In this document: positions 16,669 through 17,360 of the stretch, piece after piece | Layout of the letters: each line of letters starts with the position of its first letter | How positions within the stretch are numbered: the stretch's first letter is position 1 | Assembly: GCA_025362975.1 (NCBI GenBank) | Contig: JANYES010000011.1 | Span: 65,581 to 129,580 of the forward strand | DNA from: Alphaproteobacteria bacterium | Lineage (GTDB): Bacteria > Pseudomonadota > Alphaproteobacteria > Rickettsiales > SXRF01 | Direction of reading: 5' to 3' | DNA length: 64,000 bases | The notes under the pieces: generated by a model | The model's database searches: none | What the model was told of the DNA's origin: nothing | The model's input: the letters and a program-made list of their open reading frames with translations, nothing else | Translations under genes and position numbers: made by a program

Positions 16669-16797
16669 ATGAAACGCACCGTTCGAATAGTCACCATCGC
16701 CGTGCTTGCCAGCCTAGCCTTGAGCGGCTGCTCGTGCAAAGAATGGGGTTATTGCATGCATATCTTCCCCAATGCCGAACGTTTCGCGGGCAATTAG
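16669..16797 (+). CDS. 42-aa putative lipoprotein minigene (only intact copy of the repeat array)
   Basis: Read by hand: MKRTVRIVTIAVLASLALSGCSCKEWGYCMHIFPNAERFAGN*. Signal peptide plus lipobox L-S-G-C. ATG lies 4 nt after the TetR stop. No clear SD. Confidence 0.45.
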   Translation: MKRTVRIVTIAVLASLALSGCSCKEWGYCMHIFPNAERFAGN

Positions 16798-17360
16798 TTT
16801 CTCGAAATCATTTGCATCAGTTAGTAGAAACTTAAAAGGGAAAAGGATTTTCTTCCCCTGTCAGCCATCGCCGCGCTTGCCTGCCTCTGCTTAAGCAGTT
16901 GCCCGTGCATAAACGGGGCTATTTTATGCGTATTCTTCCCAACGCCGAGCGTTCTCGGGCAACTAGTGTAAAATCATTGCATGATTTAACGTTGCTTAAG
17001 CGGAAGGAAAATTTTCTCTCCCATATTGGCTATCGTCGCATTTGCCGCCTCGCGTTAAACTGTTGCCTGTGTAAGAAACAGGTTATTGCATGCGCATCCT
17101 CCCCAATGCCGTGCGTTACACAGGTAACTTGTTTCCTGAAATTATTGCCTGAATCACCGGAACCTGATCGGCGGGGAAGATTTTTTCTTTCCGCTTATTA
17201 GCCTCGCCAAAAGCGGTTGCATATACAAGAAATGGGGTTATTGCATGCAGATCTTCTCCTACGCCGGAATGTTTTACAGGTAACTAGTTCCCTAAAATTA
17301 TTGCCTGAATTACCGGAACCTGATACGCGGGAAAGGACTTTTCTTTCCCTAAAAGCGGTA
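16669..17360 (+). repeat. Four-unit tandem array (period ~153-170 bp) of the lipoprotein minigene plus hairpin spacer; units 2-4 degenerate
   Basis: The conserved core GG(G)TTATTGCATGC..TC(Y)TCCCCAA(Y)GCCG....GGYAACTAG occurs at 16745-16797, 16915-16966, 17081-17131 and 17234-17287. Units 2-4 keep lipobox-like remnants (LSSC, LNCC, KSGC) but lack an ATG and carry indels or frameshifts. Spacers carry GGGAA..TTCCC hairpins; the best is GGGAAAG/CTTTCCC at 17329-17349. Confidence 0.75.

Follow-up and report, generated by a model that had tools for sequence, protein, structure and literature searches.

The 64,000-nucleotide stretch of DNA analysed here (the window) carries a run of short, imperfect repeats at 16669-17350, between the gene of a TetR-family regulator and that of a large membrane protein (gene B). 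The question raised by this locus is how such an array arose and whether it does anything. Three answers had been put forward in the earlier note: a relic of serial duplication, a set of Cys-containing precursor-like peptides, and a structured 5' leader regulating the downstream gene. The results described below favour the first. Very probably, the array is a lineage-specific, decaying tandem duplication of codons 8-42 of a lipoprotein minigene together with the spacer that follows it. Most likely it is an ordinary duplication relic without a function of its own.

A repeat search yields four in-register, head-to-tail copies of 155-171 bp each, with start-to-start distances of 171, 164 and 154 bp; an intact open reading frame is present in the first copy (unit 1) only. 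When unit 1 is compared by sensitive blastn with the 6 kb around it, the unit limits fall at 16669 (16690)-16859 for unit 1, 16860-17022 for unit 2, 17023-17184/92 for unit 3 and 17193-17350 for unit 4. In a MAFFT alignment the units are pairwise 67-75% identical, and their global alignment scores lie 25-37 standard deviations above those of shuffled units (z 25-37). This confirms the four-unit tandem array described before. The units are too diverged for Tandem Repeats Finder, which misses the array; a tandem-repeat finder had been suggested earlier as a check. There is no sign of a dispersed (REP- or MITE-like) repeat: matches in the organism's own 3.26-Mb genome are confined to the array itself and, since the rest of that genome holds no other copy, the array is a local structure.

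Unit 1 contains a 42-aa mini-lipoprotein gene on the forward strand (16669-16797). Its ATG at 16669 lies 4 nt past the TAA stop codon of the TetR gene (16662-16664), exactly as had been reported. The precursor consists of the signal peptide MKRTVRIVTIAVLASLALSG and the mature peptide CSCKEWGYCMHIFPNAERFAGN, and it shows the pattern of a lipoprotein, with MKRTVRIVTIAVLASLALSG directly before the Cys. Such a pattern calls for a basic n-region and a hydrophobic h-region, followed within residues 15-35 by the lipobox L-(S/A/G/N)-(G/A)-C. We take the precursor to fit this pattern, as laid down in the rule of PROSITE PS51257. In 12 orthologues from uncultured Alphaproteobacteria the mature peptide CSCKEWGYCxH(I/L)FPNAER is almost invariant despite many synonymous changes, and 19 residues are invariant among 5 sequences. 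The signal-peptide part is free to vary; its basic start, hydrophobic stretch and lipobox before the Cys are always kept. Over the 18 mature codons of the 12 orthologues there are 420 synonymous against 110 non-synonymous differing codon pairs, and unit 1 is under purifying selection. The label of lipoprotein minigene that unit 1 had received is well supported. Unit 1 is a real gene, and its product bears the marks of a translated, exported lipoprotein, a predicted substrate of signal peptidase II.

Members of this family were collected from a large protein collection and from a library of 1.84 billion representative proteins. The family is small, with proteins of 31-55 aa, and rare (12 clusters among the 1.84 billion representatives). 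Its close members have L(S/G)GCSCKEWGYCxH(I/L)FPNAERF in common, its more distant ones GC(S/A)C.(D/E).GYCP..FP. The unit 1 product has no match in Pfam. Its score against the NCBIfam model of LptM/YifL (NF047847) is 17.2 bits against a cut-off of 27.7, and residues 1-21, the signal peptide, alone match. Like LptM/YifL, the product is a short precursor in which signal peptide and lipobox lead up to Cys+1, and its short mature chain has a conserved Gly/aromatic/Pro motif near the lipidated Cys. The minigene motif CSCKEWGYCxHIFPNAERF, however, has two extra Cys residues, and the gene is tied to TetR. We therefore regard the mini-lipoproteins of 39-56 aa, with CSCKEWGYCxHIFPNAERF as their mature motif, as a real and unannotated family. 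Three distant members, from other genera of the same taxonomic family, are not located beside a TetR gene (L020, 1501-1599; L022, 1495-1656, reverse strand; L025, 1492-1638, reverse strand). These minigenes stand divergently beside proteins of 470-520 aa that begin with a type IV pilin-like GFTL(L/V)ELSIVL motif.

The remaining three units are in a different state. In a blastn self-comparison the homology between unit 1 and the copies begins at query positions 19-36, or about 16690, which is codon 8 of unit 1. The duplicated segment of unit 1 thus measures 170 bp (16690-16859, forward strand) and comprises codons 8-42, the stop codon and 62 nt of spacer, in which a weak hairpin lies at 16837-16859, as seen from both blastn and alignment. 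Since the homology starts only at codon 8, copies 2-4 most likely never contained the ATG that they had been thought to have lost. All three pseudo-copies lie on the forward strand. Unit 2 (16860-17022) has no start codon, carries two 1-nt deletions that shift the frame, and has a weak hairpin (17002-17021). In unit 3 (17023-17192) there is an in-frame TAA in the signal-peptide part, indels are present and the stop codon has become TTG; its hairpin lies at about 17170-17195. In unit 4 (17193-17350) 15 nt are missing from the signal-peptide part and 1 nt has been inserted near the end; its hairpin is at 17329-17349. One frame of unit 4 does read KSGCIYKKWGYCMQIFSYAGMFYR up to a stop, as stated earlier. 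The GGYAACTAG given as the common end of the units holds only approximately: this end reads GGCAATTAG in unit 1 and GGTAACTTG in unit 3. Open reading frames that run across copies 2-4 (100 aa and 51 aa) have no Pfam match. Copies 2-4 are non-coding, having no start and being broken by frameshifts and stops, which is what a pseudogene array looks like.

Two further properties of the copies deserve attention. The differences between unit 1 and the copies number 26, 18 and 38 at first, second and third codon positions, respectively. Selection on the branch of unit 1 itself explains this third-position bias, so the bias is not evidence that the copies once coded for a protein. In addition, the units are not evenly conserved over their length: three of them have exactly the same GGTTATTGCATGC, and between the spacers of units 3 and 4 identity reaches 83%. 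The uneven conservation could be due to gene conversion or to constraint, rather than to pure drift. Directly after the last hairpin, the sequence TCCCTAAAAGCGGT (17346-17359) repeats the start of unit 4, TCGCCAAAAGCGGT (17204-17217), at 12 of 14 positions with an exact 9-mer. This may be what is left of a fifth unit cut off at the lipobox codons, or a chance match.

The comparison with relatives, which are metagenome-assembled genomes (MAGs) of uncultured Alphaproteobacteria, bears on the origin of the array. All 12 related loci are single-copy, with no second unit. In four of them the order TetR, minigene, gene B is the same as in the window and the spacer between minigene and gene B is only 66-80 nt: 77 nt in locus L036, 66 nt in L039, about 80 nt on contig C18 of genome G003 and 68 nt on the P0005 contig. 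In the remaining relatives a convergent gene lies within a few bases of the minigene. When the spacers of L036, L039 and G003 are set against the units, they match the spacer portion, most closely that of units 3 and 4, and have the motif TTG..N16..CTG(A/C)TA.GC in common with it. A unit is therefore made up of codons 8-42, the stop codon and almost all of the ancestral spacer. Even the closest relatives sampled are far removed (76-79% identity in TetR DNA, about 50% at third codon positions), so that a divergence of 25-33% between units is compatible with a duplication inside this lineage, after the split. An exact DNA pattern gives 0 matches in metagenome contigs. Scans of genomes and metagenomes with the peptide return distant relatives only, none of them close enough to show variation in copy number.

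Given that the relatives are single-copy, that the unit spans minigene codons plus ancestral spacer and that the copies have decayed, the array is best explained as a lineage-specific tandem duplication. The serial-duplication relic of the earlier note is thereby upheld, by copies that lack the first 7 codons and carry frameshifts and stops no less than by the single copy in 12 of 12 relatives. That relatives lack the array entirely while the flanking genes are unchanged is the outcome which the earlier note had named as a refutation, and it applies to any conserved function of the array.

The course of events may have been as follows. The ancestral locus would have contained the minigene, a spacer of about 70-80 nt and then the Wzy_C/PglL-like gene B. 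Unit 1 would be a functional small lipoprotein gene, presumably co-transcribed and probably translationally coupled with the upstream TetR gene. A segment of 170 bp, from codon 8 to near the end of the spacer, was probably duplicated in tandem in the lineage of this genome, and unequal recombination or slippage could then have expanded it to four units. The extra copies, being without a start, would have drifted to 25-33% divergence and collected frameshifts, stops and deletions, to end up as non-coding relics. The likely sole effect of the array is passive: with it, the stretch ahead of gene B that stays untranslated has grown from about 75 nt to 567 nt. Read-through from the TetR operon may be reduced over this distance, and gene B may have to rely on whatever promoter-like sequence the last spacer copy contains.

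This history resembles other cases of tandem segmental duplication followed by pseudogenisation, in which head-to-tail units of one length class are found with the first copy alone intact. Here as well the copies start inside the gene, are not dispersed, and are missing from relatives with the same flanks. The differences are in scale and divergence: the unit is tiny (170 bp, most of a 42-codon gene plus its downstream spacer) and the copies are unusually diverged for an array that can still be recognised.

Among the other explanations, the one that survives best holds that the array has been retained because it acts on gene B, either as a long structured 5' leader or through repeated promoter or regulatory sites taken from the ancestral spacer. 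We consider such retention unlikely, and equally unlikely its consequence that the array would alter the level of the Wzy_C/PglL-like protein B or uncouple gene B from the TetR operon. In its favour, every unit brings a copy of the ancestral spacer, in which a block TTGAYA-N16-CTG(A/C)TA.GC is conserved among the relatives. There is also a sigma-70-like site, TTTACA-17-AATTAT, in unit 4 (17273-17301). It is the single such site in the array stretch, however, against 2.0 expected by chance. The operator motif of the TetR regulator is not enriched in the units either: TCAGTTAACTGA has one match, with 3 mismatches, in the spacer of unit 1, and window-wide there are 10 matches against 11.7 expected, so the motif was dropped as a candidate operator in the units.

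Regarding RNA structure, a hairpin had been claimed for each spacer. Fair stability is reached in units 3 and 4 alone, at -11.8 and -11.2 kcal/mol, respectively (z about -3.2 and -3.5 against shuffles), and the last hairpin, at 17329-17349, indeed lies 15 nt before the ATG of gene B at 17365; both points favour an action on gene B. The hairpins of units 1 and 2 are weak (-5.7 and -5.2 kcal/mol, z about -1), and the related spacers have no hairpin at the corresponding place. RNAalifold suggests that the lipobox codons pair with the last codons, with a few two-sided changes that looked like covariation across units. In unit 3 this pairing is a 13-bp inverted repeat (17062-17074 with 17116-17128) around the GYCM..PNA core (fold z -3.5); in unit 2 it shrinks to 8 bp, and unit 4 does not have it. 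As a conserved structure this stem was rejected, being strong only in unit 3 and missing in 8 orthologous genes. Folded as a whole, the 741-nt region is unremarkable (z -1.2) and Rfam gives no match to the array at E up to 1. With no Rfam family, no significant conserved fold and stems that are not conserved between units or orthologues, the structured leader of the earlier note has no positive evidence beyond the hairpins of units 3 and 4 and the uneven conservation. The relatives, moreover, do with a single spacer of 66-80 nt.

A composite reading goes further and combines several of these elements. In it the array is more than junk: the repeated spacers, through the promoter-like block and the hairpin that each contains, would have become fixed by shifting the expression of gene B out of the TetR/mini-lipoprotein operon, or else the copies would serve as gene-conversion donors for the lipopeptide; separately, the minigene would define an undescribed family of lipopeptides of about 20 residues. 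Taken as a whole, this combination seems to us quite improbable. The lipopeptides perhaps form a disulfide loop. They may work with the Wzy_C-like membrane proteins, and in more distant relatives they are found beside giant pilin-like proteins.

The role of donor can be considered by itself. Units 2-4 would then be silent partial cassettes that recombine into the expressed unit 1 and vary the lipopeptide, much like pilS and pilE in Neisseria. The likeness is real as far as layout is concerned: the copies are promoterless, truncated at the 5' end and adjacent to one expressed gene, and conserved blocks flank more variable ones. Yet frameshifts and stops occur in the very part that would have to be donated, the mature peptide is near-invariant over 12 distant orthologues (the opposite of a variable antigen) and none of the relatives has a cassette. 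We judge this explanation very unlikely. Just as doubtful is an assembly artefact, even though the genome is metagenome-assembled, consists of 28 contigs with 3.6% estimated contamination, and is compared with relatives that are MAGs too. The units lie in phase, deep inside a 396-kb contig, and as they differ by 25-33% an assembler would neither collapse nor multiply them.

Scarcely credible, finally, is the idea that several units are translated, through non-standard starts or frameshifting, into the set of Cys-containing peptides proposed earlier, as in a multi-precursor RiPP locus: every unit does retain pieces of the peptide in one frame or another, such as GYCMRILPNA in unit 3 and KKWGYCMQIF in unit 4, but units 2-4 have neither a usable start in the peptide frame nor a Shine-Dalgarno sequence at a usable distance, every copy is interrupted by stops and frameshifts, leaving one intact open reading frame, the neighbours are TetR, two DUF5765 and Wzy_C-like genes rather than maturation or other modifying enzymes, and the intact peptide has a conserved lipoprotein signal instead of a leader-core layout.

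With tandem duplication and decay as the preferred explanation, the genes around the array can be placed in context. Gene B (17365-19416, forward strand) encodes a Wzy_C/PglL-like membrane protein of 683 aa, which we call paralogue B; its match to Pfam Wzy_C has an E-value of 2.7e-4, below the curated cut-off, and a PDB sequence search gives no match. In L036 and L039 the gene next after the minigene shares 56-57% identity with it. Paralogue A (12155-14206, likewise 683 aa) is 39% identical to paralogue B and has no Pfam Wzy_C match. L036 contains a separate orthologue for each paralogue, the downstream gene for B (56% identity) and the upstream gene for A (50%). The two-paralogue locus is consequently ancestral, and the duplication of the large gene old. 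Between paralogue A and the genes discussed next lie two tandem genes for DUF5765 membrane proteins (14270-15760). On the P0005 contig, too, a DUF5765 gene directly precedes the small Trp-rich open reading frame described below.

The minigene is the last member of a conserved three-gene module (15778-16797), often with Wzy_C/PglL-like genes on one or both sides. The first member (15778-15936, forward strand) encodes a small Trp-rich membrane protein of 52 aa. Open reading frames of 52-56 aa occur at the same position in related loci (L014, L015, L016, L033, L034, L036, L037, L038, L040 and the P0005 contig). One of these orthologues has a weak precomputed match to PF27910; a Pfam scan of the 52-aa product from the window gives no match, and a literature search on DUF5765 and PF27910 gave nothing. 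The second member (16047-16664, forward strand) is the gene of the TetR-family regulator, a protein of 205 aa with Pfam matches to TetR_N (E 7e-13) and TetR_C_13_2 (E 1e-10). In all close relatives the minigene either begins 4-18 nt past the TetR stop or overlaps the TetR gene by 4-20 nt.

About 20 nt before the TetR start lies an operator-like palindrome of 12 bp (16018-16029), which reads CCAGTTAACTAA in the window and TCAGTTAACTGA in the relatives. An alignment of 8 TetR upstream regions shows that TCAGTTAACTGA is conserved along with a promoter-like block, and a CTTGCAA block, conserved as well, is found farther upstream. From their sequence and position, the palindrome and the CTTGCAA block look like the operator and the promoter of TetR.

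As to what these results mean for annotation, the array itself is of little consequence. It offers a neat case of a small tandem duplication in the midst of its decay, and neither genes nor a regulatory RNA should be entered for it. More useful are two by-products, namely the unannotated lipoprotein family and the module in which it occurs: a Trp-rich protein, a TetR regulator with the palindrome TCAGTTAACTGA as operator-like site, and the mini-lipoprotein. This module points to a regulated, undescribed function in the envelope and, with its association with Wzy_C-like genes, provides a modest new lead for annotation.

The number of modules differs between genomes. G003, a genome of the same genus, has two TetR plus mini-lipoprotein modules, on contigs C14 (L012) and C18 (L026); a convergent gene comes after one of them, the orthologue of gene B after the other. 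The genome to which the window belongs has one module only.
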